NCBI GenBank assembly: GCA_934660865.1 | Contig: CAKUIA010000007.1 | Coordinates: 60,001 to 92,000 of the forward strand | DNA: 32,000 nt | Direction of reading: 5' to 3' | Source: an uncultured Opitutales bacterium | Lineage (GTDB): Bacteria; Verrucomicrobiota; Verrucomicrobiia; Opitutales; Intestinicryptomonadaceae | Shown here: positions 805 to 29,128 of the stretch, piece after piece | Layout of the letters: the number at the start of each line of letters is the position of its first letter | Numbering within the stretch: position 1 is the stretch's first letter | Program-made: the position numbers and the translations under genes | The notes under the pieces: model-generated | What the model was told of the DNA's origin: nothing | Databases searched by the model: none | The model's input: the letters and a program-made list of their open reading frames with translations, nothing else

Positions 805-935
805 AATAGAAAAAGCAAAACGCAAAGCGCGCAATAATTCAACCTTTTTTTAAACCCTTTAAAGTTTTTATTTTTTTGAAACATTTAAGCGGCGTTTTCG
901 TTTTAACATATCGAACAAATCAAACAAAAACAAAT

Positions 936-1589
936 ATGAATATCAAAACTCCCATTACCCTGACGCTTGCAATGTTTGCAGCCGCGCTTTTTGCGCAGGA
1001 CACCCCACCGTCCAAACCCGAAACAAACGCGAAAATGCTTAAGATGTTCGACAAAGACGGCGACGGCGTTTTAAGCGAAAGCGAGCGCAAGGCCGCAGGC
1101 GAAGCCATAAAAGAGCGCGAAGAAAAGATGAAACAAATGCTTTTAAAGCGCGCCTCGCTTATAGTTAAAAAATACGACAAAGACGGCGACGGCAAGCTTT
1201 CGGAAAGCGAATTGGCTACATTTTTAGAGAATTCGCACAGGTTCGGCCGCCCGCAAAGACAGCCGAAGCTTTCGCCCGAAACAATTAAAAAATACGACAA
1301 AGACGGCGACGGCAAGCTTTCCAGAGACGAAATGAAGGCCCTGCGCGAAGACGTCGAAAAGATGTTCAAAGAGCTTAAAAAGAAGTACGACAAAGACGGC
1401 GACGGCAAGCTTTCCAGAGACGAGCGCAAAAAAATGATAGAGGAAAACCCCGAATTGTTTAAATCCGTTCCCCCGCCGCCTCCGCCCGACAGGTTTAGGC
1501 AAAGGCAAAACGGCGAAATGCCTCCGCCACCGCCCCCGCAGGCACAAGACGGCAATTTGCCTCCGCCTCCTCCGCCTTTAGGCGAGTAA
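936..1589 (+). CDS. Secreted calcium-binding protein with four EF-hand loops and a polyproline C-terminal tail
   Basis: I moved the start to the ATG at 936, giving the signal-peptide-like MNIKTPITLTLAMFAAALFAQD. There are four canonical 12-residue EF loops: DKDGDGVLSESE, DKDGDGKLSESE and DKDGDGKLSRDE twice. The tail carries three PPPPPP tracts. Confidence 0.75.
   Translation: MNIKTPITLTLAMFAAALFAQDTPPSKPETNAKMLKMFDKDGDGVLSESERKAAGEAIKEREEKMKQMLLKRASLIVKKYDKDGDGKLSESELATFLENSHRFGRPQRQPKLSPETIKKYDKDGDGKLSRDEMKALREDVEKMFKELKKKYDKDGDGKLSRDERKKMIEENPELFKSVPPPPPPDRFRQRQNGEMPPPPPPQAQDGNLPPPPPPLGE
1166..1423 (+). repeat. Intragenic perfect DNA repeats encoding the EF-hand units
   Basis: The 37-nt string ttaaaaaatacgacaaagacggcgacggcaagctttc is identical at 1166-1202 and 1285-1321. 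The 38-nt string tacgacaaagacggcgacggcaagctttccagagacga is identical at 1293-1330 and 1386-1423. A shorter core, gacaaagacggcgacggc, also occurs at 1050-1067. Confidence 0.9.
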
Positions 1590-2240: not shown

Positions 2241-2738
2241 TTATAAAATTTCGCAGTATTTTCCCGTCATTGTTTCGCCGCAGTCTATCTTTATTGCCGC
2301 AAAGCCGTCTTTGTGTTTTTCGTATAAGTCCCAAATAAACTTTTTGTCGCTTTCGGGAATTTTGCCGTTTTTTATTTCGTTTAACGGCATAAATTTAAAC
2401 GAACCTTCGTCCATTGCCCCGGGCAAATAGTCCATAACTTTTTTGCAGTTAAAAAGGAACATAAGCCAGTTTGTGTCGCCCTCGTACGCCCTTTCGCTTA
2501 CCATGCCGAACAAGTGCAAATCGGCAATTTCAACGTTAAAGCCGGTCTCTTCAAAAATCTCCCTTTTTGCACATTCGTGCGGGCTTTCGCCAACGGCCAT
2601 TTCAAGCTTGCCGCCCACGGGGCTAAGCAGGCCCTTGTTCGGCATATTGTTCCTTTCTATCATCAAAAATTCGCCCCTTGCGTTTTTTATGTAGCAAAGA
2701 ACGCTTATTTTGAAGGGAAGTTTTTGATGGGTTGGCAT
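2241..2738 (-). CDS. NUDIX hydrolase
   Basis: Nudix box GGKLEMAVGESPHECAKREIFEETGF fits GX5EX7REUXEEXGU. Its ATG shares one nucleotide with the purU stop (TAATG at 2736-2740). Confidence 0.8.
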   Translation of the reverse strand: MPTHQKLPFKISVLCYIKNARGEFLMIERNNMPNKGLLSPVGGKLEMAVGESPHECAKREIFEETGFNVEIADLHLFGMVSERAYEGDTNWLMFLFNCKKVMDYLPGAMDEGSFKFMPLNEIKNGKIPESDKKFIWDLYEKHKDGFAAIKIDCGETMTGKYCEIL

Positions 2739-3709: not shown

Positions 3710-4552
3710 ATGAAAATAATAAATACCCCTTCGGAAATGAAAGATTACGGCGCAAAGGTACGCGCCGACAAAAAAACTCTGGCACTTGTGCCGACAATGG
3801 GCGCGCTGCACGCAGGGCACTTAAGCCTGATTAAAAAGGCAAAGGAATGCGCCGACATTTGCGTTGTTTCGATATTTGTAAACCCCACGCAATTCGGCCC
3901 GAACGAAGATTTCGAAAAATACCCCCGCCAGGCCGAAAAGGATATTTTGGCTGCCGAAAGCGCGGGGGCCGACGCCGTATTTTTGCCGAAAACCTCCGAC
4001 ATGTATTTTGCCGACTCTTCCACTTTTGTAGAGGAGGAATCGATTTCGAAAGACCTTTGCGGGAAGTCGCGCCCGAAACACTTTAGGGGGGTAACAACCG
4101 TAGTGTGCAAGCTCTTTAACATAGTTAAGCCCGATTTTGCGGTATTCGGCGAAAAAGACGCCCAGCAGGTTTCCGTTATAAAGCGCATGGTGCGCGACCT
4201 GTTTATGGACGTAAAAATAGTAAGGGCGCCCCTCTTTAGAGACGAAAACGGTTTGGCAATGAGCTCGCGCAACGCCTATATGGACTCCGTTCAAAAGAAG
4301 GAGGCCCTAATGCTTAACAAGTCGCTTTTAAAGGGCAAAGAGCTTGTAGAAAAAGGCTGCACAAACGTAGACAGGGTTATTGCCGAAATAACCAACTGTT
4401 TGTCGAAAAGCTCCAAGATAAGGGTAATTTACGTCAAGGCGGTAGACGCCGAAACGTCGGTGCCCGTAGCCGAGATAGAAAGCGGCAAAACCAGAATTTG
4501 CATGGCGGTTTGGCTCGACAACACGCGCCTAATCGACAATATGGTAATGTAA
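3710..4552 (+). CDS. panC: Pantoate--beta-alanine ligase (pantothenate synthetase)
   Basis: 280 aa. LVPTMGALHAGHLSLIKKA contains the HxGH motif, and the length is typical. Confidence 0.9.
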   Translation: MKIINTPSEMKDYGAKVRADKKTLALVPTMGALHAGHLSLIKKAKECADICVVSIFVNPTQFGPNEDFEKYPRQAEKDILAAESAGADAVFLPKTSDMYFADSSTFVEEESISKDLCGKSRPKHFRGVTTVVCKLFNIVKPDFAVFGEKDAQQVSVIKRMVRDLFMDVKIVRAPLFRDENGLAMSSRNAYMDSVQKKEALMLNKSLLKGKELVEKGCTNVDRVIAEITNCLSKSSKIRVIYVKAVDAETSVPVAEIESGKTRICMAVWLDNTRLIDNMVM

Positions 4553-4564
4553 TTTTTACGATAA

Positions 4565-6160
4565 ATGAACGATACATTCGACATTCTTGTAATCGGAAGC
4601 GGCATTGCAGGCCTTAGCTTTGCGCTAAGGTGCTCGGCACAGGGCAAAAAGGTTTGCATTATAACCAAAAAGAACGCCGACGACACAAACACAAACCACG
4701 CGCAGGGCGGCATTGCCAGCGTAACAAGCACGCTGGACGACTACGAATCGCACATAAAAGACACTTTGATTGCGGGCGACGGCCTTTGCAACGAAAAGGC
4801 GGTTCGCGCAATAGTTCAGTCGGGGCCCGAAGAAATCCAAAACCTGATAAAGCAGGGTGTTGAATTTACAAGCCTAAAAGACGGCTCGCCCGAACTGGGG
4901 CGCGAAGGCGGCCACTCGGCGCGCAGAATCTTGCACGTTAAAGACTATACGGGCAAGGCCATAGAGGAAGCCCTGCTAAACCGCGCCAAACACGACAAAA
5001 ACATACACATTCTCGAAAACCATTTCGCCATAGACCTTATAACAAGCGCAAAGATAGAGAACTTCCCGACAACGGCAAATCGCGTTGTGGGCCTGTATGT
5101 TTTAGACACTAAAAAGGGGAAGGTTAGCGCGATAAAAACAAGGGTTGTAATGCTCTCTTCGGGAGGCTCGGGCAGAGTATACCTATATACCACCAACCCC
5201 ACAATAGCCACGGGCGACGGCGTTGCAATGGCATACAGGGCCGGGGCAAAAATATCCGACTTGGAATTTATACAGTTCCACCCCACCGCAATGTATACCC
5301 AAGACGACGAAAGGTTTTTAATCTCCGAAGCAGTTAGGGGCGAAGGCGCAATTTTGCGCAATATCAAAGGCGAGGCATTTATGGCAAAGTACGACCCGCG
5401 CAAAGACCTTGCCCCGCGCGACATAGTTGCCCGCGCCATAGATTCCGAAATGAAAAGGCTCGGCTCTGCCCACGTTTGGCTCGACATTACGCACGTTCCG
5501 CGCGAAACGCTTAAAAACCGCTTCCCGAAAATTTTCGAGCACTGCTTGTCGAAAGGCATAGACATTTCGAAAGACTATATGCCCGTTGTTCCCGCGGCGC
5601 ACTACCAGTGCGGCGGCATACAGACAAAAATAGACGGCTCGACCAACATAGGCGGCCTGTACGCCTGCGGCGAAGTTGCCTGCACGGGGCTTCACGGCGC
5701 AAACAGGCTTGCAAGCAACTCTTTGCTGGAAGCCGTTGTAATAGCCCACAAAGCCTCGGTTGCGGCGCTAAAATATATGGAAAGCGCAACCTTTATAGAA
5801 AGGGAGCTTCCCGCCTGGGTAGACGGCCACCTGAGGGATTCCGACGAAAGATTCATTCTTTCGCACAATATGGACGAGCTTAAGCGCACCATGTGGGACT
5901 ATGTCGGCATTGTAAGAACCTCGAAAAGGCTCGACCGCGCCGAACGCCGCATAAAAAACTTGGGCGCCGAAATCGACGAGTATTACTGGAACTTCAAGGT
6001 AGAGGAAAAGCTGCTCGAACTTAGGAATATGATTCAAGTTGCCCTGCTTATAATCCAATGCGCAAAAAAGCGCAAGGAAAGCCGCGGGCTTCACTACACT
6101 TTAGACTACCCGCACAAGGCCAAGAAAATAGTAAACAGCGTTGTCTGCAAAAAACTATGA
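4565..6160 (+). CDS. nadB: L-aspartate oxidase
   Basis: 531 aa. FAD-binding fold DILVIGSGIAGLSFAL, then HAQGGIA and HPTA. The length and C-terminal helical domain fit the NadB/succinate dehydrogenase flavoprotein family. Confidence 0.85.
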   Translation: MNDTFDILVIGSGIAGLSFALRCSAQGKKVCIITKKNADDTNTNHAQGGIASVTSTLDDYESHIKDTLIAGDGLCNEKAVRAIVQSGPEEIQNLIKQGVEFTSLKDGSPELGREGGHSARRILHVKDYTGKAIEEALLNRAKHDKNIHILENHFAIDLITSAKIENFPTTANRVVGLYVLDTKKGKVSAIKTRVVMLSSGGSGRVYLYTTNPTIATGDGVAMAYRAGAKISDLEFIQFHPTAMYTQDDERFLISEAVRGEGAILRNIKGEAFMAKYDPRKDLAPRDIVARAIDSEMKRLGSAHVWLDITHVPRETLKNRFPKIFEHCLSKGIDISKDYMPVVPAAHYQCGGIQTKIDGSTNIGGLYACGEVACTGLHGANRLASNSLLEAVVIAHKASVAALKYMESATFIERELPAWVDGHLRDSDERFILSHNMDELKRTMWDYVGIVRTSKRLDRAERRIKNLGAEIDEYYWNFKVEEKLLELRNMIQVALLIIQCAKKRKESRGLHYTLDYPHKAKKIVNSVVCKKL

Positions 6161-6705
6161 ACCGCATAGATTTAAACAAGCACATAGCAAAGGTTGCCGA
6201 CTTCCCGAAAAAGGGCATTCTGTTTTTCGACATTACGCCCCTTTTTACCGATTCCGACGCCTTTTTTAAGGTTGTAGAAGACTGGGCCGACCTGCTTAAA
6301 AACGTAAAGGCCACCAAGATTTTGGCAATGGAAGCGCGCGGCTTTTTGTTTGCCGCCCCCCTTGCCATTGCGCTTAACTTGCCCCTTGTTTTGGTTCGCA
6401 AAAAGGGTAAATTGCCCCGCCAAACCCTAGACGAAACCTACGACCTGGAATACGGCACGGCGACAATTTCCGTCCACAAAGACGACATATCGAAAGACGA
6501 CTCGGTTATTATAGTAGACGACCTTCTCGCCACGGGCGGCACGGCAAAAGCCGCCTGCAAGCTTGTGGAAAAACTCGGGGCAAAAACGGCGTTGTGCACC
6601 TTCCTTTGCCAGCTGGATTTCCTTGACGGCAAAAAAACGCTTGCCGGCGAAAATATTTTAACGATGTACACTTGCAAAGACTCTGATTTTTGTTGCAATT
6701 TTTAA
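6157..6705 (+). CDS. apt: Adenine phosphoribosyltransferase
   Basis: I moved the start to the ATG at 6157, which overlaps the nadB stop as ATGA, giving 182 aa. N-terminus MNRIDLNKHIAKVADFPKKGILFFDITPLF; PRPP loop VIIVDDLLATGGTA. Confidence 0.85.
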   Translation: MNRIDLNKHIAKVADFPKKGILFFDITPLFTDSDAFFKVVEDWADLLKNVKATKILAMEARGFLFAAPLAIALNLPLVLVRKKGKLPRQTLDETYDLEYGTATISVHKDDISKDDSVIIVDDLLATGGTAKAACKLVEKLGAKTALCTFLCQLDFLDGKKTLAGENILTMYTCKDSDFCCNF

Positions 6706-6729: not shown

Positions 6730-7119
6730 ATGCAATTCGAAGCTTATTTACCTGTATTTTTACAAATAGTCCTGTCGGTGGCGATGGGGCTTGGAATTAT
6801 TGCGGCAAGCTGCATATTCGGACAAAGGGCCAAAAAGAACGCCATAAACAATTCGCCCTACGAATGCGGTATGCCCACTTTCGGCAAAGCGCACATGAAT
6901 ATGGGCGTTAAATTCTATGTTGTTGCCCTGCTTTTTGTGGTGTTCGACATAGAGGTGCTTTTTATGATTCCCTTTGCCCTTATCTACTCCGACTTTGTAG
7001 CCGCAAACATTTCAATCATTGCGGTTGTAATGTTCTTTTTGGCCCTTATGATAGCGGGCATAATATACGAAGTAAAAAAGAACGCTCTAGACTGGAATAT
7101 CCCCAAAACAAATCTCTGA
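6730..7119 (+). CDS. nuoA: NADH-quinone oxidoreductase subunit A (ND3 family), not followed by nuoB
   Basis: 129 aa with three hydrophobic segments. Motifs are PYECGMP, FYVVALLFVVFDIEVLF and ALDW. Confidence 0.8.
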   Translation: MQFEAYLPVFLQIVLSVAMGLGIIAASCIFGQRAKKNAINNSPYECGMPTFGKAHMNMGVKFYVVALLFVVFDIEVLFMIPFALIYSDFVAANISIIAVVMFFLALMIAGIIYEVKKNALDWNIPKTNL

Positions 7120-7132: not shown

Positions 7133-8500
7133 ATGGATTTAAGCAAGTATATCGCAAAATCGAGAATAATAGAAATTAAAAGCGCCGACTTTGAGGGCGC
7201 TATAAAGGAAATGCTCGATGCCGTGCCAAGCGAGTTTTTAAAACCGCAAAGCACAAAAGAAGGTATACTTAAAGACGTTGTAGCCCGCGAAAAGAATATG
7301 CCCACCTACCTGGGCGGCGGCGTGCTTATGCCGCACGCAAAGGCGCAAATAAAATCCAGCTATGTGTTTGTTGTCGGTATGTGTCCCAACGGAATCAGTT
7401 TCGACACAAACCGCAACGAATATTCGGAAACAAGGCTTATATTTTTGCTTTTGGCAAACGGCGTGCTTAAAAACTACCTTAACACGCTTTCTACAATAGC
7501 AAAGCTTTTCGCCCAGCCCGACGTACACGCCGAAATTTTCGGCAAGACCGACTTTGCGGGCTTTAAGGAAAGCATTTGGAAAATCTTCGGCAAAAAGGGC
7601 AAGTCCGACAACAAATCGGGTTCGGGCGTCGCCAAAATGAGCAGGGTTGCAAAACGCTTTCTTTCGCAGGCAATGCGCATTGCAAAAACCTCGAAATCTA
7701 CCTGCGTTATGCTTTTCGGCGACACATTCCCATCGGGGGTAGACACCGGCGAAATTTTCGGAGGCCTAAAAACCCTTATAGTTACCGAACGCTCGGCGGA
7801 AGACTTCCCCGGCAAAAAGACCGCGACTATTTCGGTTAAGTCGTATTCGGGGCGCAGAATGACGGGCTTTGGCAGCGCCATAATTATGGGGCTTACAAAG
7901 GGGCTTATAGACCGCAACGAAAAGATATGCTGCATTGGCGGCATAAAAGACAGCAAGATTTTCGACACCGTTGTGGTTGTAGACATTGCGCAGGAATTTT
8001 CGAAAATAATGAACCTGCAAAGCAATCTTGTGCCGGCGGGCGTAAAACCCGAAGTTGTAGAAAGGGTTTTGATTATAGCGTCGGATTTGTCGGTTGAAGG
8101 CAGGGAGGGCAAACCCGTCGGCTGCCTTTTTGTTGTAGGCGACGCGAAAAAAATACGCCCATTTACAAAGCAGCTTATACTAAACCCCTTTTACGGCTAC
8201 AAGCCCGAAGAGCGCAACATTTTAAGCCCATTTATGGACGAAACGGTAAAGGAGCTTTCGCTGATAGACGGAGCCGTGATTATAGACGGCTCGGGCGCGA
8301 TAGAAAGCGCGGGAACATTGATACATACGCCCGACTTTAACCTAAAGCTGCCGGGCGGGCTTGGGGCAAGACACGCCGCAGCCTACTCGGTTTCCGTTTC
8401 GGCCGACTGCCTGGCCTTTGTAGTTTCGTCGAGCACGGGCATAATAAGCGTGTTCCGCAACGGACAAATGCTGCCTTTGAACGAGAAAAACCATTCTTAG
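7133..8500 (+). CDS. Three-domain signalling protein: PTS EIIA type-2 (PtsN-like), pyruvate-kinase-C-terminal-like domain, and DAC (diadenylate cyclase, DisA_N-type) domain
   Basis: - aa 1-150: REKNMPTYLGGGVLMPHAK, the EIIA-2 phospho-His loop, with His68 at nt 7334-7336.
- aa ~172-300: alpha/beta region STCVMLFGD...LIVTERSAE...ICCIGGIKDSKIFDTVVVVDI, which resembles PK_C.
- aa ~305-450: GCLFVVGD...IDGAVIIDGSGAIESAG...LGARHAAAYSVSVSADCLAFVVSSSTGIISVFRNGQ, which aligns to the CdaA/DisA DAC core (DGA and RHR motifs). Confidence 0.7.
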   Translation: MDLSKYIAKSRIIEIKSADFEGAIKEMLDAVPSEFLKPQSTKEGILKDVVAREKNMPTYLGGGVLMPHAKAQIKSSYVFVVGMCPNGISFDTNRNEYSETRLIFLLLANGVLKNYLNTLSTIAKLFAQPDVHAEIFGKTDFAGFKESIWKIFGKKGKSDNKSGSGVAKMSRVAKRFLSQAMRIAKTSKSTCVMLFGDTFPSGVDTGEIFGGLKTLIVTERSAEDFPGKKTATISVKSYSGRRMTGFGSAIIMGLTKGLIDRNEKICCIGGIKDSKIFDTVVVVDIAQEFSKIMNLQSNLVPAGVKPEVVERVLIIASDLSVEGREGKPVGCLFVVGDAKKIRPFTKQLILNPFYGYKPEERNILSPFMDETVKELSLIDGAVIIDGSGAIESAGTLIHTPDFNLKLPGGLGARHAAAYSVSVSADCLAFVVSSSTGIISVFRNGQMLPLNEKNHS

Positions 8501-8513: not shown

Positions 8514-9911
8514 ATGAAAATTTACTTTATGGGCATTTGCGGCACCGCAATGGGCAACGCCGCGTGTATGATGAAAGAGGCGGGCCACCGGGTTTTCGGC
8601 TCGGACAAAGGCGTTTACGACCCGATGAAAAGCGTTTTGGAAAACGCCAAAATTGAAATCCACGACGGCTTTAGCGTAGACTACCTAAAAAGCGTTTCGC
8701 CCGACCTGGTTGTTGTCGGCAACGCCGTAAGCCGAATGAACGAGGAAGTGGAGTTTTTGCTTAATACGCGCGCCTACGAATTTACAAGTTTGGCCGACCT
8801 TATTTCAAAATACGCAATATCGTCAAGAAAATGCCTTGTTGTAAGCGGCACCCACGGCAAAACCACAACAACCTCCATGGCGGCGGTTTTGCTTAAAAAC
8901 CAGGATGCAAACACGGGCTACCTGATTGGCGGCGTTCCGCAAGACCTCGAAAGCGGCTCTAAACTTGGCGGCAAAGATTCCCCCTTTGTGATAGAAGGCG
9001 ACGAGTACGACACTGCGTTTTTCGACAAGCGCAGCAAGTTTATACACTATAGACCCCGCGTTTTGATAATAAACAACATCGAGTTCGACCACGCCGATAT
9101 TTTCAGGGACTTAACCGACGTAAAACGCACCTTTACCCATGTAAGGCGCATTGTGGCGGGCACGGGCGCTATTGTCGAAAACGCCGACGACGCCAACATT
9201 GCCTCGTTGGAAGACACCCCGTGGACAAAGCGCATAAAAGTGGGCTTTGCCCCCACTGCAGACCTTAAAATTTTAAACTTTGCGCAAAACGAAAACGGCT
9301 CGTCTTTCGACCTGCAAAACGAGTTTAAAACCGTGCACATAAGCTGGAAGCTTTCGGCGGAATACAACGCGCGAAACGCCGCAATGGCCATTGCAGGCAC
9401 CGCCCTGCTTTTGGGCAAAAAACATACTTTGGATTTAGACATAAGCCCCCTGCTGGGCTTTAAGGGCGTAAAACGCAGGCAGGAGGTTTTGTATTCAAGC
9501 GGCAAAGTGGCGGTTGTAGAAGACTTCGGGCACCACCCTACCGCCGTAAAAAACACGATTTTGGCAATGCGCAAAAAATATCCCTTAAGGAAAATTTTTG
9601 CGTGCTTTGAGCCGCGCAGCAACACTTCGCGCACAAACGTTTTTCAGGACGAATTTGCCGACGCTTTAAGTTGCGCCGACCGAATTTTTGTGGGCCAGGT
9701 TAAGAACCTCGAAAAAGTGCCCCAACAAAAGCGCATAGACTTTTTAAAAATGGCGCAAAAATCCTCAAAGCCCTTTGCCCACTACGACGACAACCAAAAA
9801 CTTTTGTCGGACTTAAAAGAGGCGGTAAAAAACGAGCCCTCTTCGTGCGTGATATTCTTTAGCAACGGCTCGTTCGACTCAATCCAGCATTCAAAAGAAA
9901 TTAGAATGTAA
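8514..9911 (+). CDS. mpl: UDP-N-acetylmuramate:L-alanyl-gamma-D-glutamyl-meso-diaminopimelate ligase (murein peptide ligase)
   Basis: 465 aa. N-terminus MKIYFMGICGTAMGNAACMMKEAGHRVFGSD is Mpl-type. Contains the Mur-ligase P-loop GTHGKTTTTSM. Confidence 0.8.
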   Translation: MKIYFMGICGTAMGNAACMMKEAGHRVFGSDKGVYDPMKSVLENAKIEIHDGFSVDYLKSVSPDLVVVGNAVSRMNEEVEFLLNTRAYEFTSLADLISKYAISSRKCLVVSGTHGKTTTTSMAAVLLKNQDANTGYLIGGVPQDLESGSKLGGKDSPFVIEGDEYDTAFFDKRSKFIHYRPRVLIINNIEFDHADIFRDLTDVKRTFTHVRRIVAGTGAIVENADDANIASLEDTPWTKRIKVGFAPTADLKILNFAQNENGSSFDLQNEFKTVHISWKLSAEYNARNAAMAIAGTALLLGKKHTLDLDISPLLGFKGVKRRQEVLYSSGKVAVVEDFGHHPTAVKNTILAMRKKYPLRKIFACFEPRSNTSRTNVFQDEFADALSCADRIFVGQVKNLEKVPQQKRIDFLKMAQKSSKPFAHYDDNQKLLSDLKEAVKNEPSSCVIFFSNGSFDSIQHSKEIRM

Positions 9912-10013: not shown

Positions 10014-10256
10014 ATGGGAAAATTCGAAAAGTTAATAGAAAAGCTTGGCAATTTAAAATCTGACAACGCTTGGACTTTTGAAGACGCCGTCTATCTGCTG
10101 GAAAACTCGAATTTTGAAAAGGTCGGCGGCAAAGGAAGCCATCAAGCGTACCAGTGCGAAGCTTTGCAAAAGACAGTGGTTTTGGCAAAACACGGCAATA
10201 AGATAAAATCGGGATATATAAGAAGCATAAGAAAGGCACTCGACAATGAAAAATGA
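10014..10256 (+). CDS. hicA: HicA-family mRNA interferase toxin
   Basis: 80 aa. GGKGSHQAYQCEALQKTVVLAKHGNKIKSGYIRSIRKAL fits the HicA/YcfA GSH...H core. It overlaps the downstream gene by 11 nt. Confidence 0.75.
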   Translation: MGKFEKLIEKLGNLKSDNAWTFEDAVYLLENSNFEKVGGKGSHQAYQCEALQKTVVLAKHGNKIKSGYIRSIRKALDNEK

Positions 10257-10611
10257 GAATTACGCATTAAGAATTTCCTGGGACGAAAACGAGAATGAAT
10301 ACCTCGCGGAAATACCCGCATTGGAGGGTTGCATTGCCTACGGCAAAACCGAGGAAAAAGCGCTAAAAGAACTGCAAATCGCAAAAGAGCTATGGCTTAA
10401 AGCAAGAAAGTCCGCAAAACTTCCCATTCCCAAGCCCGAAGCAACCGTGGAAAAACTTAGATCATTAAAGCCCATTTTGAATGTTTCCAAAGTTGCGCGA
10501 TACGCAAATATTCCCGAACAAACATTGCTTTCAAAAATCAAGCGCGGCTCGCCCCTGAATGCGAGCGAAAGCAGAAAAATAGGCAAACTTCTGGAAACTA
10601 TAGCCGTATAA
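10246..10611 (+). CDS. hicB: HicB-family antitoxin with a C-terminal DNA-binding-like region
   Basis: 121 aa. YALRISWDENENEYLAEIPALEGCIAYGKTEEKALKELQIAKELWL is a typical HicB N-domain. The C-terminal LNVSKVARYANIPEQTLLSKIKRG is HTH-like. Confidence 0.75.
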   Translation: MKNENYALRISWDENENEYLAEIPALEGCIAYGKTEEKALKELQIAKELWLKARKSAKLPIPKPEATVEKLRSLKPILNVSKVARYANIPEQTLLSKIKRGSPLNASESRKIGKLLETIAV

Positions 10612-12828: not shown

Positions 12829-15591
12829 TTAAAGCTTGTCGGCGTCTATTTGCTCGAGAATTGTTCCGTCGCTGTTGAATATGTTTTGCGGCTTTATGCT
12901 TACCGAATATTTAGGGTCTGAAAACGTGTTTGAAACTTTTATTTGTATTGTGCCTATAAGCGGGTTAAACGCCGTAGACGCTATTTTGGAGATAAGAGGC
13001 AGCGTTTCGCCGCCCAGCCATTTAAAATACAGCTTTGCCGAAATTTCGTCGCTAAGGCAGTTGTATTTTGCCTTTCCGCTTATTGTAGACGAAGCGCCGT
13101 TTATTTCCAGTTTTTGGAACGACAACTCGCCGTTTTCCAAATCGGCAACGGTTTGCATATTGTCGTATTTAAATGTCGCAATGGGGAACCTCAGCTTTTC
13201 CAGCGCAACCGAAATGCCGCCCAAAATGTTCAGCTTGGCAAGGTTTTCGTTTTTCAATTCGGCGGTGGCGCGCCCCTTTATGCTTTTAAAGTCGTCCAAA
13301 TAGCCCTGCGCCGTTCCCCTTACGTTTACAAGCCCCTTTTCGGGTGGCTCGTCGTCTTTTTTTTCGGCATTCGCCAAAGCCGCAATAAAGTCTTCGGCGC
13401 GCTGCTGGTCTATGCCGTCTACGTCGAAAGCCGCGTTAAAATACCTGCGCTTGCCCTCTTTTTTAAGCGAAAATGCCCCCAAATTTATTTTGCCCGCGCA
13501 AAAAACGCCTCCTACGTTTTTTATGTCGAAATCCTCGTCTAAACCCGACCCAAAACCGCGTATGCTGTCGAACGGGAAGCCCCCTATGTCTATAAATTCG
13601 GGAATGTCGAATTTAAACGCAATTTTTTGCTTTGCGTCTTTTTCGCGCTCCAAGTTTGCGCAGCGCAAGTCCAAATCCACATTCGCATAGCCCGAAAAGC
13701 GCAACACGTCTTTTAGCTCTTCAACATCTTCGCCGCCCAGGGCAAACAGCGCGCCGCTTTTCATGTTGGCATTGGCAACAACCCTGCGCTCGTAATACTT
13801 GTCCAAGCCCCTGTTTGGGTCGTATGTCCAGCACAAGGCGGCTTTTGCAAAGCCCTTGTCGGTGTCCGAAATATCGACATCGTATATCGAAATAACAGAC
13901 GGGTCTACATTTATCTTAAGCGATACGCCGCCGAAAAGGTGGTTGTTGTATACGACGTCTTGCCCCTTTACCGACACAAAGCACCATATAAAATCGGGGT
14001 CGCCCCAGCGGCTTTTTATGTAGGCGTTTGCATACGGAAACCCTTTTTTAAATTCAAATTCGCCCATAATGCGGCGCCACCAGTCCTCCATAAAATGGCT
14101 TATTGCTGTGGGCCTTATAGTGCCGTCTATGTAGAATTCGTAGTCGAGATTTTTTAGGTTTTGGTAGACACTACCTTCCACCTGCCAGCCTTCGGGCGAG
14201 GCCACAAAAATATTGTCTGCATACAAAGCAAAGCTTTGCGAATCGAAACTTATGTCGGCGCACGCCTCGGTTGAGGGAATTTTATAGAACACGCAATCTT
14301 TGCCCGCAAACTTTGCCGACACAAAAAACTGCCTGTTTTCGATGTTAAAATCGGCACTGCCCGCCAAATACACCCCTTCGGGGAAGTCGAAATCGTTAAG
14401 TTCCTCTATTTTCGGCACAAAATTAAAGTTTGTTGCAAACAGCGGGTTTTCGAATGTGCAAAATTTGGCGCTAACATTCGAGCCGCTTCTGTTTGCAACA
14501 AGCTTGGCAAAAAAGTCGCCCCTTCTTTTTACGTATATATCCGCCATTGTGGGCATATGGTCGGCAAGCGAAAGCTTGTCGGCAAAAATGTCGGCATAGG
14601 CAAATTTTTGCCCGTCAAACAAAATGTCCACCGCCGAAACTTCGGCGTTAAACAGCGCCTTGTTTTCGAAATCAACCAAGGCAAAAGCGTCTAAATTCTT
14701 AAGCCGGCTTTTGCCGAAAATGTCGGCCTTGCCCGCTTCAAGCATAACCTTTGCCGTTTTCCTGCTTATGTTCGACTTCGACATTTCGGCCGCAACTACA
14801 ATGTTTTCGAAGGAAACGTCGCCCATATTTTCGACCGGAACGACAACCGAATTTGCGCCGTATACAAGCTTTAAAAAGTCAAGCCCCTCGCTTGTTGCGT
14901 CGAAATTTACAACCAGCGCCGAATTGCCGAACCTGTCGGCATACTCGCGGCCGCTCTCCAAAAATTTGCAGAAAGCGTTCCACATTTGCGGCGGAGTTTT
15001 TGCGGAATCTTTTTGCGCCGTTTCGTGCCCGCTCTTTTGCCGCTGCGCGAAAATCCTTTCGCTGAAAGTGCCCGAAGCCCTGATTGCAACCCTGCCAAAG
15101 TGCGCCCTAAGCTTTTCCAATTTCCACCAAATGCCGCTGTTCGAAAGCGCAAAGCTCGTCTTTTCCAGCAGCCAGCCCCTTTCGGAACCCTCGCTGGAAT
15201 TTACCTTGGCGTTTTCAACATAAATTTTGCTTACAAGAAAATCGCCCCTTAACAGCGCAAAAACGGAAATGTCTACTACCACCTTGTCGGCGTTTAAAAA
15301 TTCGGCCGAAGTGCCCGCAAACCTAAGCGACAAGCCTTTTATTTCAACTTGTCCCCTTGCATTAAGCCTTATGTCCTTTTCGGCGGCTACAACCCCGTTC
15401 TTCGACAAGTGCGAATGTAGCAGCTCTACAAACGATTCGTTTACCCCAAACGAAAGCGAATAGGCAAGCGCCACCAACAGCGCGCTTTCGGCCAGCAACG
15501 CCGCAAACAGGAAGACGTTGAACGCGTAAAGAGCCGTCCGCAAAGCCTTTTTTGCGGCTTTGCCTAAAGCGTTGTCGTTTGATACTTTCAC
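12829..15591 (-). CDS. AsmA/TamB-like large envelope protein (N-terminal membrane anchor plus a long beta-rich region)
   Basis: - One TM helix: LYAFNVFLFAALLAESALLVALAYSL.
- AsmA-like N-terminal pattern: VEIKGLSLRF...LNADKVVVDISVFALLRGDFLVSKIYVENAKVN.
- AsmA_2-like C-terminus: GELSFQKLEINGASSTISGKAKY...IGTIQIKVSNTFSDPKYS.
- There is no in-frame ATG in the first 231 codons. I chose the GTG at 15591, 1 nt after the DUF4340 stop. The alternative is the TTG at 15678. Confidence 0.5.
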   Translation of the reverse strand: MKVSNDNALGKAAKKALRTALYAFNVFLFAALLAESALLVALAYSLSFGVNESFVELLHSHLSKNGVVAAEKDIRLNARGQVEIKGLSLRFAGTSAEFLNADKVVVDISVFALLRGDFLVSKIYVENAKVNSSEGSERGWLLEKTSFALSNSGIWWKLEKLRAHFGRVAIRASGTFSERIFAQRQKSGHETAQKDSAKTPPQMWNAFCKFLESGREYADRFGNSALVVNFDATSEGLDFLKLVYGANSVVVPVENMGDVSFENIVVAAEMSKSNISRKTAKVMLEAGKADIFGKSRLKNLDAFALVDFENKALFNAEVSAVDILFDGQKFAYADIFADKLSLADHMPTMADIYVKRRGDFFAKLVANRSGSNVSAKFCTFENPLFATNFNFVPKIEELNDFDFPEGVYLAGSADFNIENRQFFVSAKFAGKDCVFYKIPSTEACADISFDSQSFALYADNIFVASPEGWQVEGSVYQNLKNLDYEFYIDGTIRPTAISHFMEDWWRRIMGEFEFKKGFPYANAYIKSRWGDPDFIWCFVSVKGQDVVYNNHLFGGVSLKINVDPSVISIYDVDISDTDKGFAKAALCWTYDPNRGLDKYYERRVVANANMKSGALFALGGEDVEELKDVLRFSGYANVDLDLRCANLEREKDAKQKIAFKFDIPEFIDIGGFPFDSIRGFGSGLDEDFDIKNVGGVFCAGKINLGAFSLKKEGKRRYFNAAFDVDGIDQQRAEDFIAALANAEKKDDEPPEKGLVNVRGTAQGYLDDFKSIKGRATAELKNENLAKLNILGGISVALEKLRFPIATFKYDNMQTVADLENGELSFQKLEINGASSTISGKAKYNCLSDEISAKLYFKWLGGETLPLISKIASTAFNPLIGTIQIKVSNTFSDPKYSVSIKPQNIFNSDGTILEQIDADKL

Positions 15592-15592
15592 C

Positions 15593-17443
15593 TTATTTTG
15601 CGTTTTGCGCCTGAGCTTGGGGCGAGTTTGCGCCAAGTTCGTACAACGCCGCCGACAACTTGGGAGCCAGCAACACAAGCTCGCCGTTTACAAGCGCATA
15701 TTGTTCGTTTGCCGAAATTCTCTCCCCGAAGGGAATCTGCAATGTCGAAATTTCGTCGGTTCCCGTACCGGGGGTTGAAATCTCTATGGAAAGCCTGTAA
15801 AGCCAGTCGCTTTTTTTGGAGTTTACCGTATACGACGTTTGGTCGGCAACGCCCTTTGCATAGGCCTTAACGTAGAACTTTTTTGCAAATTCCGCCAATG
15901 TTTTAAGTGCGTTTTTCTTAGGCAGCGAAAGGTTCTGCGCGCCGCCCAAAATTTCGCCGTTTTGTGCCGCGGCAAAAAATACCTGTTTTTCGCTCTTTAT
16001 ATCCGAAATGGAGATGGAAACAATTTTCGACTTTTCGGGCATCGAAAACGACAGCCTGCTTTTGTAGTCCAAAAAGTCGGGCTTAAAATTGCGTATAAGC
16101 TCGCCGCTAATCCCGTAAATGCTCGGAGAGGAATCTACCTTTGCATAGTACAATGTGGCGGCACCCTCTTTGTAGGATTTGCCTATGCTTATGCTTTTGC
16201 GCACGTTGTCGGCAAAGGCCAAAGTTATTTTTACAGCAGGATTGTCCAAGCCGAATTGCGCCAAATTTTCGTCGGGCAAATCGCTTACATACGAATATGC
16301 TATTGTGTTGCGCAAGGCCGACAATACGCGCGAAACCGTTGTTGTATCGGCGCTTGTAGGGGCGATTACCGTTTCGCCGCGCCTGCCCGAAACGTCCCAC
16401 GCGTCGCCCACTTTCTTAAGATTTACCATATCCGCGTCCGACGCGATTTCTATCTGCTGGCACGAATGTTCGGGAAATCTGAAAATGTTTTTTTCCCTCA
16501 GGGAATTTTGCAGGGCCGCAAGGTTTTCGAACGGGGCCAAATCAAGAGTAAATATCGTCGGGTTGTCGGCGATTTTGGCGTAGATTTTCCCCTTGGCGGA
16601 ATCGGCCTTGCCGAAATAGATTGTCTGCGAGCGGTTTGTTCCGTCGAGCGTCATGGAAATCGGCCACGACATTGCGTCCAGCCCGGCTTCAACCTCGCTT
16701 ACGTTTTCGAAGCTTTTTATCAGCGCCGACGAAACGGCGTTTATAAAGGCGTCTACCGCATGGCTCGAGGCCGCCGCCGAAATGGGGGTTTCGAAACGCC
16801 ATTTACCCTCGGCATTGCGGGTTAGCCCTATTCTTTTCCACGAAGTTTTCGCCCTTGTTTTTGCGTCTTCCACCGGAAGCCTTAAGGTTATCGAGGCAAT
16901 CTCGAATTTCGGAATGTCTATAACGCTTTGGCTGCGCAGGCGCTCTATGTCTACCATAAGCGCGTCGGCAAGCTCCCTGTCGGCAACAACAACCCTGTTT
17001 TGCATGGAGTCGAGCATATACACCTTGTCGCCGACCGACGCATTTTTGCCTATTTTAAGAGAATACATTGTTTTGCCGTCGCCGTATTTGAAAACGCAAA
17101 CGGGATTTTTCAGGCCGTAGTCGTCCAAACTCTGCCCGTGCGACGCTATTTCCGAAACGGGAAAGCCGTTTTCGCTGTCCAAAAACTCAAGGTTTCTTAA
17201 AATTCTGTTTACGGCAAAATAGTTTGCCTGCCACTGTATGGGCGAAATTATGCGCCATTTGTTGTTTTCGAACACCAAAATGCGGGGTTTGTCCACATTC
17301 TTGCCGTCTACCTGAAGCCTTGTAATTTCAACCAAAGCCCTTTGGCTTTGTTCGGGAACAGCCTGCGAAAATTCAAGTTTAAATATCGCAAGCAGCGCGG
17401 CGACATTGGCAATCAGAAGAAAAATCGTAAAACGTATCCGCAT
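15593..17443 (-). CDS. DUF4340-family protein (accessory protein of GldG-type ABC systems)
   Basis: 616 aa with an N-terminal TM helix (IFLLIANVAALLAIF). Contains NKWRIISPIQWQANYFAVNRILRNL and repeated YGLKNP / FGLDNPAVKITLAF motifs typical of DUF4340. It starts 6 nt after the GldG-like gene. Confidence 0.6.
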   Translation of the reverse strand: MRIRFTIFLLIANVAALLAIFKLEFSQAVPEQSQRALVEITRLQVDGKNVDKPRILVFENNKWRIISPIQWQANYFAVNRILRNLEFLDSENGFPVSEIASHGQSLDDYGLKNPVCVFKYGDGKTMYSLKIGKNASVGDKVYMLDSMQNRVVVADRELADALMVDIERLRSQSVIDIPKFEIASITLRLPVEDAKTRAKTSWKRIGLTRNAEGKWRFETPISAAASSHAVDAFINAVSSALIKSFENVSEVEAGLDAMSWPISMTLDGTNRSQTIYFGKADSAKGKIYAKIADNPTIFTLDLAPFENLAALQNSLREKNIFRFPEHSCQQIEIASDADMVNLKKVGDAWDVSGRRGETVIAPTSADTTTVSRVLSALRNTIAYSYVSDLPDENLAQFGLDNPAVKITLAFADNVRKSISIGKSYKEGAATLYYAKVDSSPSIYGISGELIRNFKPDFLDYKSRLSFSMPEKSKIVSISISDIKSEKQVFFAAAQNGEILGGAQNLSLPKKNALKTLAEFAKKFYVKAYAKGVADQTSYTVNSKKSDWLYRLSIEISTPGTGTDEISTLQIPFGERISANEQYALVNGELVLLAPKLSAALYELGANSPQAQAQNAK

Positions 17444-17449
17444 AAAAAA

Positions 17450-18931
17450 CTACCTCCTAAAGAAAGAAACCAAAAGACCGACTATTGCAATAAATGCAGG
17501 CAAAAGCGCAAATCTGAACGCAAGCGCAAACACGTCGCCCTCGCTTAGGGTAATGGAATACTTGCTCATCGAACGCGGCACAATGTTTAGCATACTGTCC
17601 CTTTCAAGCATCCAGTTTACGGTGTTGTATAAAAGCTTTGAATTGCCCAAACGGTTAAAAAGCCTGTTCGAGGCAAAGTCTTCGTCGCCGAATACCGCAA
17701 GCTTGCCGCCGGGTATCTTAAGCCCCAAGTCGTTGTTGCCCGTGCGCGAGGCCACCATTGCAACGGGAACGGGGCCTTTAAAATCCACGGCTTCGTCGTA
17801 CTTAAAGCCCGAGTTTTTGTAGTTTTTTTCGGCCCAGCTTGCGGGCGTGCTGTACATTAAAACGTCGCTTTTAATGCTTTCGTCTATGGCGGCGCCCAAA
17901 TCCTGCCTTACCATTCTAGTCGAGCCGAACTGGAGCGGCAAATCGGCGTCTACCAAATAGCGGACAATCTTGTGTGGGTTTTGCGAAAAGCTTTTTACGA
18001 CCAAGTCGCCCCCCGTGCTTTCGCCCGAGTTTGCGGATTCTATTACCATTGCGTCGTCGGTGCGAATGCCCCAGTCGAACAAAATTTCGTCCAACCCGTT
18101 TGTGTCGCCCATGCCGAAAAACATTATTATGTTGCCGTTCGATTTTAGCAGGTAGTTTTTAAGCAAATCTATTTCGCGCGGCAAAAAGGTGGCCTGCGGG
18201 GCGGCAATTACAATAAGGGCGGCGTTTTGGGGGATTTGTTTTGCCTCGGTAAGGTTTAAGTCGGCAATTTTAAAGTTGCGGCTTGTAAGGTACGACGCAA
18301 ATTCCGACATGCCCCGTAAAGGGTCTGCGCTGCGGTAGCTCATTTCGCCGTGGCCCGAAAGGAAATATATTTTGCCGTCGTCGTTTTGGGTTACCGAAAG
18401 CATTGCCGAGCTTATCGCCTGCTCGCCCTTCCACGAAACCTTGTTAGGGGCGTTTAGGTCGTACAAATCCGAAAGGCTTAAAATCTTGAATTTTTTTGCG
18501 GCGTTGTTCGAAACAATCACGCTGTTTTCTATGTCCTTGCCGAATTTCGAAACGATTTCCTCTACCTTTTTGCTTTCTATGTGCGGGTTTATGAAATGCG
18601 CCCTTATCTTAGCCGAATTTTTCATCGACAAATATTCGTATTGGGCAAGCGTTTTGTGCAGGTCTTTTAAAACCGAATCGCCGTCAAGGTCGCCAATGCC
18701 GCGCCTTACGGTAATATAGATGTCTATGGGCTCTTTTAGGCCGGTTATATAGGCCGTGCTTTCAAGCGAAAGCGAATTTTTACGGTTTTCGGAAAGGTCG
18801 AACTTAAAATAGTGCCTTGCCGCCAAAAAGTTTAGCGACAAGAACAGCAAAATGCCCAAAAAAATCTGAATTGTAAGGTTCAGCGTATTGGCCTTGCGCG
18901 CAAATCTAAAATCTCTAAAAGCCGCTCTCAT
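17450..18931 (-). CDS. GldG-like ABC-transporter auxiliary protein
   Basis: I moved the start to the ATG at 18931, which overlaps the permease stop as ATGA. It has N- and C-terminal TM helices and the motifs IYFLSGHGEMS and LIVIAAPQATFLPREIDLLKNYL. Confidence 0.7.
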   Translation of the reverse strand: MRAAFRDFRFARKANTLNLTIQIFLGILLFLSLNFLAARHYFKFDLSENRKNSLSLESTAYITGLKEPIDIYITVRRGIGDLDGDSVLKDLHKTLAQYEYLSMKNSAKIRAHFINPHIESKKVEEIVSKFGKDIENSVIVSNNAAKKFKILSLSDLYDLNAPNKVSWKGEQAISSAMLSVTQNDDGKIYFLSGHGEMSYRSADPLRGMSEFASYLTSRNFKIADLNLTEAKQIPQNAALIVIAAPQATFLPREIDLLKNYLLKSNGNIIMFFGMGDTNGLDEILFDWGIRTDDAMVIESANSGESTGGDLVVKSFSQNPHKIVRYLVDADLPLQFGSTRMVRQDLGAAIDESIKSDVLMYSTPASWAEKNYKNSGFKYDEAVDFKGPVPVAMVASRTGNNDLGLKIPGGKLAVFGDEDFASNRLFNRLGNSKLLYNTVNWMLERDSMLNIVPRSMSKYSITLSEGDVFALAFRFALLPAFIAIVGLLVSFFRR

Positions 18932-19692
18932 CTGCGTATGTCCATAACTATGGTTGTTATCGCCAAAAACAGGGCGCAAATGCTGGAATAGTAAAAGAAG
19001 GGCCTAGTGTCGAGCATTGCCGAGCCGAAATCCTCCAAATGCTTGAATGTTTGCATATAGTCGGCCAAAGCCCCAAACCACGCAAAGCTTCCGCTTTCGG
19101 GAACGTAGAACTTGTTTAAAAGCCCGCCTCCTATAAGCACGCAAAACAGCATGCAAAAACTCAGCATTGCGGCAACCAGCGTAGTGCGCGTCAAAGACGA
19201 GGCAAAAACGCCTATGGCAACATAGCTTAGCCCGCTTATGAAAATAAACAGATAGCCCGAAACCGTTTCGCCAAGCGAAAACACGCCGCCGTTTACCGCC
19301 GAATGCGGGACAAACCAAAGCGTTATAAGCGGAAACACCAGCGTTATCGCCCAAAGCAGAACATAGTATAGGTAGCACGCCGCAAATTTTGCCGCAACTA
19401 TCTGGAATATGCTGACGGGCGTTGTCATTAAGGCGTCTAGTACGCCCGATTTTTTTTCGTCGGCAAAGCTGCGCATTGTAAGAATGGGCACCAAAAACAA
19501 AACGGGAATCCAAAACACGGCCAAAAACTTTTCGGTTGCCGACACGGTAGAGGCCCTTTCGCTTAAATCCACCAAACTTAGCAGGTATATAAAGCCCATA
19601 AACGCCGTAAACAGCACGCCGGCAACGTATGTAGACGGACTTAGCATCATCATATACACCTGATTCGAAAACATTGTATAAAATTTTTTCAT
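18928..19692 (-). CDS. ABC-2 type permease (GldF-like)
   Basis: 254 aa, with about six hydrophobic segments. It lies directly between the ABC ATPase and the GldG-like gene. Confidence 0.7.
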   Translation of the reverse strand: MKKFYTMFSNQVYMMMLSPSTYVAGVLFTAFMGFIYLLSLVDLSERASTVSATEKFLAVFWIPVLFLVPILTMRSFADEKKSGVLDALMTTPVSIFQIVAAKFAACYLYYVLLWAITLVFPLITLWFVPHSAVNGGVFSLGETVSGYLFIFISGLSYVAIGVFASSLTRTTLVAAMLSFCMLFCVLIGGGLLNKFYVPESGSFAWFGALADYMQTFKHLEDFGSAMLDTRPFFYYSSICALFLAITTIVMDIRR

Positions 19693-19699
19693 GCGCTTT

Positions 19700-20704
19700 T
19701 TACGAGTCTTTGTTTTTTATATCCACAACGCTTTCCCAGCTGCGTTTTGTTGCCGCCATAAATATGTCTTCCAAAGTGGGCTTTTTGCGGTAAACCTCCC
19801 TAAGGCGCAAGGCCGTGTCTTTCGAAAGTTCGCAAACTATCTTTTCGCCCATATCCTCCAATATCGGCGTTTTTACGGTAAATTCCGAAAAACCTTCGCC
19901 GTCTTGCTTTGTTGCGGAATCCAAAACAAGCGAGGAGTCTATTATGCCGAGCAGACCGCGCATTTGTTCTTCGGTTGCCTTTGCCGATATTTTGTAGACG
20001 CTTTCGGTTATAAATTCGCGGCGCAATTCGTCGGGGCTGCCGTTGGCCACAATTTCGCCCTGGTTTATTATTATAACCCTGTCGCACATAAGCTCTATTT
20101 CGGGCAATATGTGGCTGCTTATAATAACGCTCATTTCGCCCCTAAGCGAATTTATAAGGCGGCGTATGGCCAAAATTTGGTGGGGGTCCAGCCCAATGGT
20201 GGGCTCGTCCATAATAATTACCTCGGGCTTTGCCAAAATGGCGTCGGCAATGCCAACCCTTTGCCTAAAGCCCTTCGAAAGATTGCCTATTATGCGCTTT
20301 GCCGCCTTTCTTTTAAGCTGGCAAATTTCCATAACCTCGTCTACGCGGGCCTTGTATTCGCGGCGGAGCAACCCCTTAATTTTAGCCCTGTAGCGCAGAT
20401 ATTCTATAACGCGCATATCTTCGGGCAGGGGGTTGTTTTCTAGCATAAAGCCTATGTGTTTTTGCGCCAAGTCGGGGTAGTTTGCAACGCTTTCGCCGCA
20501 AATGTATGCGCAGCCGCTTGTGGCGGGCATTAACCCGCTTATTATGCGCATTGTGGTGCTTTTGCCCGCCCCGTTTGGGCCCAAAAAACCGAGTATCTCG
20601 CCCTTTTTAATCGAGAACGAGACATCGTCTAAAGCTTTCAGTTCGCCGTATTTCTTTGTTAAGTGGCTTACGACGACCGAATAATTTTCGCCCGCTTCGG
20701 CCAT
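19700..20704 (-). CDS. ABC transporter ATP-binding protein (GldA-like) with a C-terminal extension
   Basis: Walker A GPNGAGKST, signature LSKGFRQR, Walker B VIIMDEPTIGLD, H-loop SSHIL. Confidence 0.85.
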   Translation of the reverse strand: MAEAGENYSVVVSHLTKKYGELKALDDVSFSIKKGEILGFLGPNGAGKSTTMRIISGLMPATSGCAYICGESVANYPDLAQKHIGFMLENNPLPEDMRVIEYLRYRAKIKGLLRREYKARVDEVMEICQLKRKAAKRIIGNLSKGFRQRVGIADAILAKPEVIIMDEPTIGLDPHQILAIRRLINSLRGEMSVIISSHILPEIELMCDRVIIINQGEIVANGSPDELRREFITESVYKISAKATEEQMRGLLGIIDSSLVLDSATKQDGEGFSEFTVKTPILEDMGEKIVCELSKDTALRLREVYRKKPTLEDIFMAATKRSWESVVDIKNKDS

Positions 20705-28596: not shown

Positions 28597-28693
28597 ATAC
28601 ACTCGGGCATTATTTATACGGAATGCAAACTTGTAAAGAACTAAAAGACAAACTGTGCTTGAATATGCGGCGGCATTTGCCAATATATAAGGT

Positions 28694-29128
28694 ATGAAAG
28701 CGATTTTTGGAATTTTGCAGGCACTGGCCCTTGCGTGCATACTTTGCGGTTGCGCATCGTACAACGTTGTATATACCCCCACAAACAACGTAAATACGGC
28801 GTTGCTTGCAAAAACCGCCCCGCAGGACATTCAAATTTTCGAGACAAGCCGCCCCAACTACCCTTATGTGGAATTGGGCACGCTAACGATTAGGTCGGGC
28901 GTAATGTATGCCGATATGTCGGCAATATACGAGCAGTTCAGGCAAAAGGCTTCGCAAATAGGAGCCTGCGCAATAATAGTAATGGGAACTGCAAGCGACA
29001 TCTACACAATGCCCGCCATAACCTACGACTATTTCGGCAACCCCATATTTTACGACAGGGTAAACCAGGCCTACATATACAGGGCGGTTGCCATTGCAAA
29101 AAACACCTCGAAAATAGACATAAAATAA
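28694..29128 (+). CDS. Small lipoprotein of unknown function
   Basis: Lipobox in MKAIFGILQALALACILCGCASYN (L-C-G-C). 144 aa. It is transcribed divergently from the minus-strand gene train. Confidence 0.6.
   Translation: MKAIFGILQALALACILCGCASYNVVYTPTNNVNTALLAKTAPQDIQIFETSRPNYPYVELGTLTIRSGVMYADMSAIYEQFRQKASQIGACAIIVMGTASDIYTMPAITYDYFGNPIFYDRVNQAYIYRAVAIAKNTSKIDIK

Follow-up and report, generated by a model that had tools for sequence, protein, structure and literature searches.

Domain structure of the cyclase

The stretch of DNA analyzed here (32,000 nucleotides from an uncultured Opitutales bacterium, assembly GCA_934660865.1, contig CAKUIA010000007.1, positions 60,001 to 92,000; referred to as the window) carries a gene for a predicted diadenylate cyclase (DAC). 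In its product, which we call the cyclase, an N-terminal EIIA domain of the phosphotransferase system (PTS), a middle domain resembling the C-terminal domain of pyruvate kinase (PK_C) and a C-terminal DAC domain are joined in a single open reading frame (ORF). The following features were assigned, with positions counted from the first nucleotide of the window.

7133..8500, plus strand: cyclase gene, 455 residues, EIIA / DacZ_P (PK_C-like) / DAC (ATG-start ORF and Pfam)
7187..7540, plus strand: PTS_EIIA_2 domain with PtsN-like fold, residues 19-136 (Pfam, PDB sequence matches, Foldseek)
7580..7642, plus strand: flexible linker from EIIA to DacZ_P, about residues 150-170 (low pLDDT, family alignment)
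7664..7999, plus strand: DacZ_P, pyruvate-kinase C-terminal-like alpha/beta sensor module, residues 178-289 (Pfam, domain model)
8090..8467, plus strand: DAC (DisA_N) catalytic domain, residues 320-445 (Pfam, PDB matches with CdaA, Foldseek)

Both outer domains scored above the Pfam cut-off of 27 bits, PTS_EIIA_2 with 58 bits (E 1.4e-15) and DAC (PF02457) with 72.2 bits (E 3.5e-20). The middle domain matched DacZ_P, a "probable sensor domain", with 24.6 bits (E 2.1e-5), which is slightly below the cut-off of 27.4, and a precomputed DacZ_P match is present in nearly all listed homologues of the cyclase. When the middle domain was modelled by itself (predicted local distance difference test, pLDDT, of 87), pyruvate kinases were matched at a template-modelling (TM) score of about 0.63, and thus the PK_C-like call is correct. 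For the full-length protein, the AlphaFold model built on 119 homologues reached a pLDDT of 90.2 and a predicted TM score (pTM) of 0.85. Its sole disordered part is the linker between EIIA and DacZ_P (pLDDT about 60 in the blocks covering residues 151-170 and below 50 for residues 156-164), which is gapped and little conserved in the family alignment. Foldseek searches with the full-length model retrieved DisA and CdaA at E-values of about 1e-7 (CdaA with a TM score of about 0.65-0.70 on the target), and the EIIA part retrieved IIA-Ntr structures (best 2a0j) with TM scores of 0.78-0.80 on the target. PDB sequence matches gave a corresponding picture, with PtsN (1a6j, 3urr, 2a0j) for the EIIA part and CdaA for the DAC part. 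The initial annotation had named these three domains in this order and with approximately these boundaries, and Pfam, AlphaFold and Foldseek agree with it.

Among the NCBIfam models, the haloarchaeal DacZ model NF041371 was the top match (101.8 bits, residues 251-447), and weaker matches were obtained with CdaM, CdaA, CdaS, DisA, FruA-IIA and PtsN. DacZ is therefore the nearest DAC class, as had been proposed from the sequence. The score is far below the equivalog cut-off of 430 bits and thus, the cyclase is not a DacZ orthologue.

The EIIA domain and its candidate phospho-donor

Conservation was followed in a close set of 119 aligned homologues and in distant sets comprising 81 aligned sequences, 86 sequences of at least 400 residues and 140 representatives. 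The residue on which phosphotransfer would depend is the following.

7334-7336, plus strand: codon of His68, predicted phospho-acceptor, equivalent to His73 of E. coli PtsN (translation and PtsN alignment)

The initial annotation had assigned His68 to the PtsN-type phospho-acceptor position. This assignment holds, with GGGVLMPH68AK of the cyclase pairing residue by residue with GNGIAIPH73GK of E. coli PtsN. In IIA-Mtl, the phospho-acceptor counterpart of PtsN His73 is His65. We found His68 in 115 of the 119 close homologues and in 76 of the 81 aligned distant representatives (about 95%). No exchange occurs at P67 or E53, and only two of the 119 close homologues lack R52 (117 of 119 retain it), so that the EIIA domain retains both the acceptor histidine and its R52-E53 ... 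P67-H68 environment.

A candidate phospho-donor is encoded in the same lineages. At one homologous locus (L044), an HPr gene (2409-2690, plus strand, 93 residues, PTS-HPr 95 bits) is located 7 kb upstream of the cyclase gene, and its product carries the motifs GIHARP (His15) and GKS (Ser46). Of the 120 HPr homologues listed, all carry the His15 motif and 116 the Ser46 motif. Conservation of the His15 motif suggests a working step from Enzyme I (EI) to HPr with some acceptor. All listed HPr homologues with a source name are of the Opitutales type, including Ca. Merdousia, a genus that has both HPr and the cyclase. A tblastn search of 1.45 Mb of homologous loci, for which EI, HPr and NPr of E. 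coli and HPr of B. subtilis served as queries, returned this single HPr of L044. In the window, no PTS genes are present beside the cyclase gene.

A second line of evidence comes from domain order. In one lineage, a relative of 480 residues (P0192) carries the permuted arrangement DacZ_P-DAC-PTS_EIIA_2, and it was recovered from two independent contigs (L088, 5001-6443; L089, 2706-4148). The simplest explanation of this order is another, separate fusion event between EIIA and the cyclase module, which suggests that the two were joined more than once.

Several observations weigh against control by phosphotransfer. His68 is lost in four close homologues (three Tyr, one Asn) and in five of the 81 distant members, with Tyr, Asn, Gln, Ser and Arg as replacements overall. 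The second active-site histidine of EIIA_2 domains (PtsN His120, IIA-Mtl His111) is Tyr115 in the cyclase, and this tyrosine is found in 118 of 119 Opitutales members; in the distant set, the equivalent position is His in 54 of 86 representatives. The HPr gene is an orphan, with no EI, HprK or EII gene adjoining it in L044 and in two further genomes, and tblastn returned no match for EI in the window or in the 1.45 Mb of homologous loci.

One could thus regard EIIA as a degenerate relic of the PTS that is never phosphorylated and acts as an allosteric, dimerisation or docking module, as unphosphorylated PtsN does on TrkA and KdpD. The cyclase would then be controlled, without any phosphotransfer, by a ligand of the PK_C-like domain or by partner proteins. 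The tyrosine at position 115, the minority of members lacking His68, the missing EI near the cyclase and HPr genes and the PtsN equivalog scores (32.4 bits against a cut-off of 138.7 for TIGR01419, and 22.1 against 221 for NF008145) are in line with such a relic. Against such a relic stand the retention of His68 in about 95% of sequences and the invariance of P67 and E53, over identities of no more than 25-58%, as well as the His15 motif of HPr, which is invariant in the same lineages. Moreover, the second histidine of IIA-Mtl serves onward transfer to IIB and not phosphate acceptance, so that Tyr115 would fit a terminal receiver. We consider the relic unlikely. Gating of the cyclase by PTS phosphotransfer, which the initial annotation had put forward, is plausible when His68 conservation, the presence of HPr in the same lineages and the permuted fusion are considered together, and we regard it as a reasonable reading towards which we lean.

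Catalytic residues of the DAC domain

Two conserved motifs of the DAC domain and the codons of their key residues were located as follows.

8264-8278, plus strand: IDGAV (translation)
8267..8275, plus strand: DGA motif, D379-G380-A381 (translation)
8363-8383, plus strand: GARHAAA (translation)
8369..8377, plus strand: RHA instead of the canonical RHR, R413-H414-A415 (translation)

D379, G380, G411, R413, H414, S432 and S434 are invariant over the 119 close homologues, in which 46 alignment columns are invariant altogether, and these residues are likewise constant, or almost constant, in the 140 distant representatives. The cyclase thus retains the invariant core (DGA, G-x-R-H, V-S) together with the DAC fold. 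According to a 2026 preprint, the conserved catalytic floor of DAC domains consists of D, G, G and R.

Two deviations count against synthesis of cyclic di-AMP (c-di-AMP). The literal RHR motif is absent and its third position is Ala in all 119 close homologues. Similarly, the S-E-E of CdaA is replaced by S-S-S in the cyclase and by S-S/A-S across the family. Exchange of RHR to AAA kills the activity of M. tuberculosis DisA, and the published mutagenesis consists of this whole-motif exchange (PMC3328451). The DAC domain might, therefore, be no c-di-AMP synthase but a nucleotide-binding pseudo-enzyme, or it might make a different nucleotide, as do DAC domains tied to defence, which produce other cyclic dinucleotides (2026 preprint).

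Such a loss of function is difficult to reconcile with the conservation pattern, since a dead domain should drift, whereas D379, G380, G411, R413, H414 and S432 are constant in close and distant sequences. The deviating positions, in contrast, are free throughout the DacZ-like clade. Among the 140 distant representatives, the third position of RHR is Ala in 64, Thr in 17, Gln in 12, Arg in 11 and His in 8, with others in the remainder, and the last position of S-E-E is Ser in 135. DisA itself is not known to have acidic residues at the S-E-E positions. We therefore rejected RHA and S-S-S as a decisive sign of a dead enzyme. The neighbours of the cyclase gene are housekeeping genes and do not form a defence island. 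In a gut-genome census (2026), 19 of the 21 "DacZ" (IPR014499) species are Verrucomicrobiota, and the cyclase-bearing species appear in the DacZ-only column with no second DAC (PMC12901056). A pseudo-enzyme or a maker of another nucleotide is improbable on these grounds, and the census suggests that the cyclase is probably the sole c-di-AMP synthase of its host.

Taken together, the invariant catalytic residues, the clade-wide freedom of the deviating positions and the fact that the nearest class, archaeal DacZ/CdaZ, contains enzymes of demonstrated activity (PMC6741144) indicate that the cyclase is probably active, a conclusion in which we place high confidence. Its metal dependence is possibly Mn-specific.

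Distribution and architectures of the family

In a species scan with one genome per species, we found that at least 576 species-level genomes encode a relative of the cyclase. The best 80 of these are nearly all labelled as Opitutales, Puniceicoccales, Opitutia or Verrucomicrobiota, and two are MAGs (metagenome-assembled genomes) that bear the names Zhongshania and Polaribacter. With an Opitutales MAG from the human gut (Hadza), the window shares 99% identity. Among the matches listed, there are 120 full-length homologues with 45-58% identity, which originate from Opitutales, Cerasicoccus, Rubellicoccus and Verrucomicrobiota and essentially all of which have the same three Pfam domains. Their public records, annotated by NCBI and JGI, bear the names "diadenylate cyclase" or "PTS sugar transporter subunit IIA". 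The initial annotation had suggested a search for this architecture in other genomes, and it is evidently common. The accompanying remark that EIIA domains are absent from the DAC classes is wrong, since the family is large and already catalogued and the Pfam model DacZ_P covers its middle domain. In Opitutia, this type of cyclase is the standard one. Its class is catalogued, and its architecture is not new.

An artefact of assembly or gene calling that joined a ptsN-like to a dacZ-like gene, for which the origin of the window from a MAG might be quoted, can be dismissed, since the same uninterrupted ORF is present in hundreds of assemblies made independently and in isolates (Cerasicoccus maritimus, C. 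arenae, Rubellicoccus peritrichatus), the base composition is uniform along the gene and the single-chain AlphaFold model is confident.

An exhaustive search with residues 165-455 yielded 1220 clusters (50% identity) at E <=1e-3 and 210 at E <=1e-30. PTS_EIIA_2 is present in 82 of the 86 representatives of at least 400 residues, the named ones including Verrucomicrobiia and Planctomycetota, and DacZ_P and PK_C were detected in 59 and 10 of these 86 sequences, respectively. Judging from these matches, the class extends across Opitutia and reaches, through more remote relatives, into other Verrucomicrobiota and Planctomycetota, and the alignments indicate that the family is under purifying selection. 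The same clade holds 63 shorter representatives (about 280-330 residues) that are DacZ-like and lack EIIA. These relatives support the idea, advanced in the initial annotation, that EIIA was added to a DacZ-like cyclase. As to a single or multiple origin of this fusion, most of the EIIA-less sequences fall into one block in a neighbour-joining tree of 141 DAC domains. The tree implies 18 state changes, many of which probably reflect truncated ORFs.

Three further members of the clade show additional domains, and for each of them a true fusion and a gene-calling error are both possible. P0161 combines a DHH (phosphodiesterase-like) domain with DacZ_P and DAC, P0142 an acyltransferase with EIIA, DacZ_P and DAC, and P0159 DacZ_P and DAC with an FAD oxidoreductase (DAO).

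Genomic context

The cyclase gene is part of a run of genes on one strand, the other members of which are listed below.

3710-4552, plus strand: panC (one-strand gene run)
4565-6160, plus strand: nadB (one-strand gene run)
ends 6705, plus strand: apt, listed as ORF 6058-6705, probable start 6157 (family match starts near Met34)
6730..7119, plus strand: nuoA-like gene, 129 residues, 13 nucleotides upstream of the cyclase gene (Pfam Oxidored_q4, 95 bits)
8514..9911, plus strand: mpl-like Mur ligase gene, 13 nucleotides downstream of the cyclase gene (Pfam Mur_ligase, TIGR01081)

The six genes panC-nadB-apt-nuoA-cyclase-mpl are separated by gaps of at most 24 nucleotides or overlap slightly, and no terminator-like site was found among nuoA, the cyclase gene and mpl. 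The cyclase gene is probably co-transcribed with nuoA and, in this genome, also with apt and mpl. The apt ORF as listed has an N-terminal extension of 33 residues that overlaps nadB, and the start at 6157 would give an overlap of 4 nucleotides with the nadB stop.

Gene context was counted in the best 80 species loci of the at least 576. In 68 of these 80 (L006-L084), the cyclase gene is immediately preceded by a nuoA-like gene of the same orientation, which makes nuoA its conserved partner in Opitutia. Its products comprise about 125 residues with three transmembrane helices and conserved PYECG, KFY and FDxE motifs, and the nuoA-like product scores below the NuoA equivalog cut-offs of NCBIfam. 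No other nuo genes were found within 10 kb of the pair, which is absent in one member of the Verrucomicrobiia. The nuoA-like gene may be the only nuoA of the genome, detached from the other nuo genes, or its product may work specifically with the cyclase. Of all observations made here, this gene pairing alone is both new and unexplained.

The distance of 13 nucleotides to mpl given in the initial annotation is exact (cyclase stop at 8500, mpl ATG at 8514), and the mpl-like product reaches 349 bits with TIGR01081 (cut-off 388.7). However, mpl follows the cyclase gene in only about 6 of the 80 species loci, so that the linkage is not conserved, and we rejected the functional link akin to cdaA-glmM that had been read into this adjacency. 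We also rejected trpA, rpoD, dnaG, TPR and TerC as conserved neighbours, all of which represent mere subclade synteny.

Several other features of the window are worth recording. A GldG-type ATP-binding cassette (ABC) set (ATPase, ABC-2 permease, ABC_transp_aux, DUF4340; 15593-20704, minus strand) is located 7 kb from the cyclase gene, and such a set also adjoins a short DAC gene in L091 (6419-10741). A link of this ABC/DUF4340 set to the cyclase was rejected, since tblastn over all loci showed no conserved linkage. Between mpl and lpxB, there is a pair of a HicA toxin and a HicB-like (UPF0150) antitoxin (10014-10611, plus strand). An EF-hand calcium-binding protein of 237 residues with three EF-hand pairs is encoded at 876-1589 (plus strand), and a similar gene is present near HPr in L086. 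Two ORFs on the minus strand (12829-15678, 949 residues; 26923-28830, 635 residues) have no Pfam match at E <=0.001.

Proposed regulation and significance

Our overall interpretation, which we hold with moderate confidence, is that the cyclase is the housekeeping, and probably the only, c-di-AMP synthase of an uncultured Opitutales bacterium of the human gut, a soluble DacZ-type enzyme that carries a PtsN-like EIIA domain at its N terminus. In the scheme we envisage, EI would charge HPr or NPr from phosphoenolpyruvate (PEP), and the phosphorylated carrier would in turn phosphorylate His68. The phosphorylation state of His68 might then alter how EIIA and DacZ_P let two DAC domains pair head-to-head, and c-di-AMP output would follow the PEP/pyruvate state and, with it, the supply of carbon and energy. 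The PK_C-like domain may provide a second, metabolite-binding input. Three null results weigh against this interpretation. Neither a c-di-AMP riboswitch (or any other Rfam family) nor a c-di-AMP receptor was seen in the window, and full-text literature searches combining EIIA or PTS with diadenylate cyclase returned no experimental study of the EIIA-fused class, which appears to be experimentally unstudied.

A bolder version, which we put forward tentatively and consider rather doubtful as a whole, holds that a permease-less regulatory PTS (EI-HPr-His68) sets the c-di-AMP level in Opitutia and the Planctomycetes-Verrucomicrobia-Chlamydiae (PVC) superphylum and that the nuoA pair reflects coupling to complex I or membrane energisation. 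If this were true, NuoA could, for instance, dock the cyclase to the membrane and so stand in for the three transmembrane helices found in CdaA, and two control routes for K+ and osmolytes, PtsN of Proteobacteria and c-di-AMP of Firmicutes, would merge in one polypeptide.

How diadenylate cyclases, CdaA, DacZ and most other classes included, perceive their input is the central question of c-di-AMP signalling. What sets the present class apart is a fused input domain with well-understood chemistry, histidine phosphorylation by phosphorylated HPr, and its input is thus directly testable in vitro. PTS gating, if correct, would reveal a role of the permease-less PTS in Verrucomicrobia, which are abundant polysaccharide degraders in gut and marine habitats and the c-di-AMP of which is of interest for STING signalling of the host (PMC12901056). 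What makes the locus valuable is an enzyme class that is uncharacterised yet ubiquitous, together with a linkage to nuoA noted here for the first time, and not an unseen architecture.

Comparison with known systems

The Pfam models DacZ_P and DacZ_T are said to originate from the 2023 survey of 22 DAC families by Galperin. By the lineage of its representatives, the cyclase family coincides taxonomically with the class "DacD", which we take to be the PTS_EIIA_2-containing class. Braun et al. (2019), who use this class from the DAC classification of Corrigan and Gruendling (2013), give it representatives from Opitutae/Verrucomicrobia exclusively, namely Lacunisphaera limnophila, a Coraliomargarita sp. 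and one bacterium each labelled Puniceicoccaceae, Verrucomicrobia and Opitutae. DacD and the cyclase family thus share the same lineages, and the gut census lists no second DAC type for Verrucomicrobiota.

Archaeal DacZ (Haloferax volcanii HVO_1660) and DacY/CdaZ (Methanocaldococcus jannaschii) share with the cyclase a soluble PK_C-like N-terminal domain that is followed by DAC. In contrast to the archaeal enzymes, the cyclase is bacterial (PVC superphylum), begins with about 150 additional residues that form EIIA and has nuoA rather than mscS as neighbour.

EIIA-Ntr (PtsN) is the best match to residues 1-150 in both sequence and structure, and the R-E-K ... G-x-x-x-P-H motif is common to both proteins. 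PtsN is known to act in K+ homeostasis (TrkA, KdpD), a role for which c-di-AMP offers a parallel. Unlike PtsN, the EIIA domain of the cyclase is fused to an enzyme, has Tyr in place of His120 and is encoded outside any rpoN-ptsN-ptsO operon. EIIA_2 domains act as phospho-receivers that steer an attached output in PRD-containing regulators of the MtlR/LevR type, but the output of the cyclase is a second-messenger synthase and not a DNA- or RNA-binding domain.

With CdaA of Firmicutes, which is regulated by GlmM and CdaR, the cyclase shares the catalytic domain. Control of CdaA is thought to consist in blocking or allowing head-to-head DAC dimers (PMC8573169), and by analogy the activity of the cyclase may be governed by the formation of such dimers as well. 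CdaA, however, is anchored by three transmembrane helices at its N terminus and responds to regulators acting in trans, whereas the cyclase described here is soluble and carries its regulators fused in cis.

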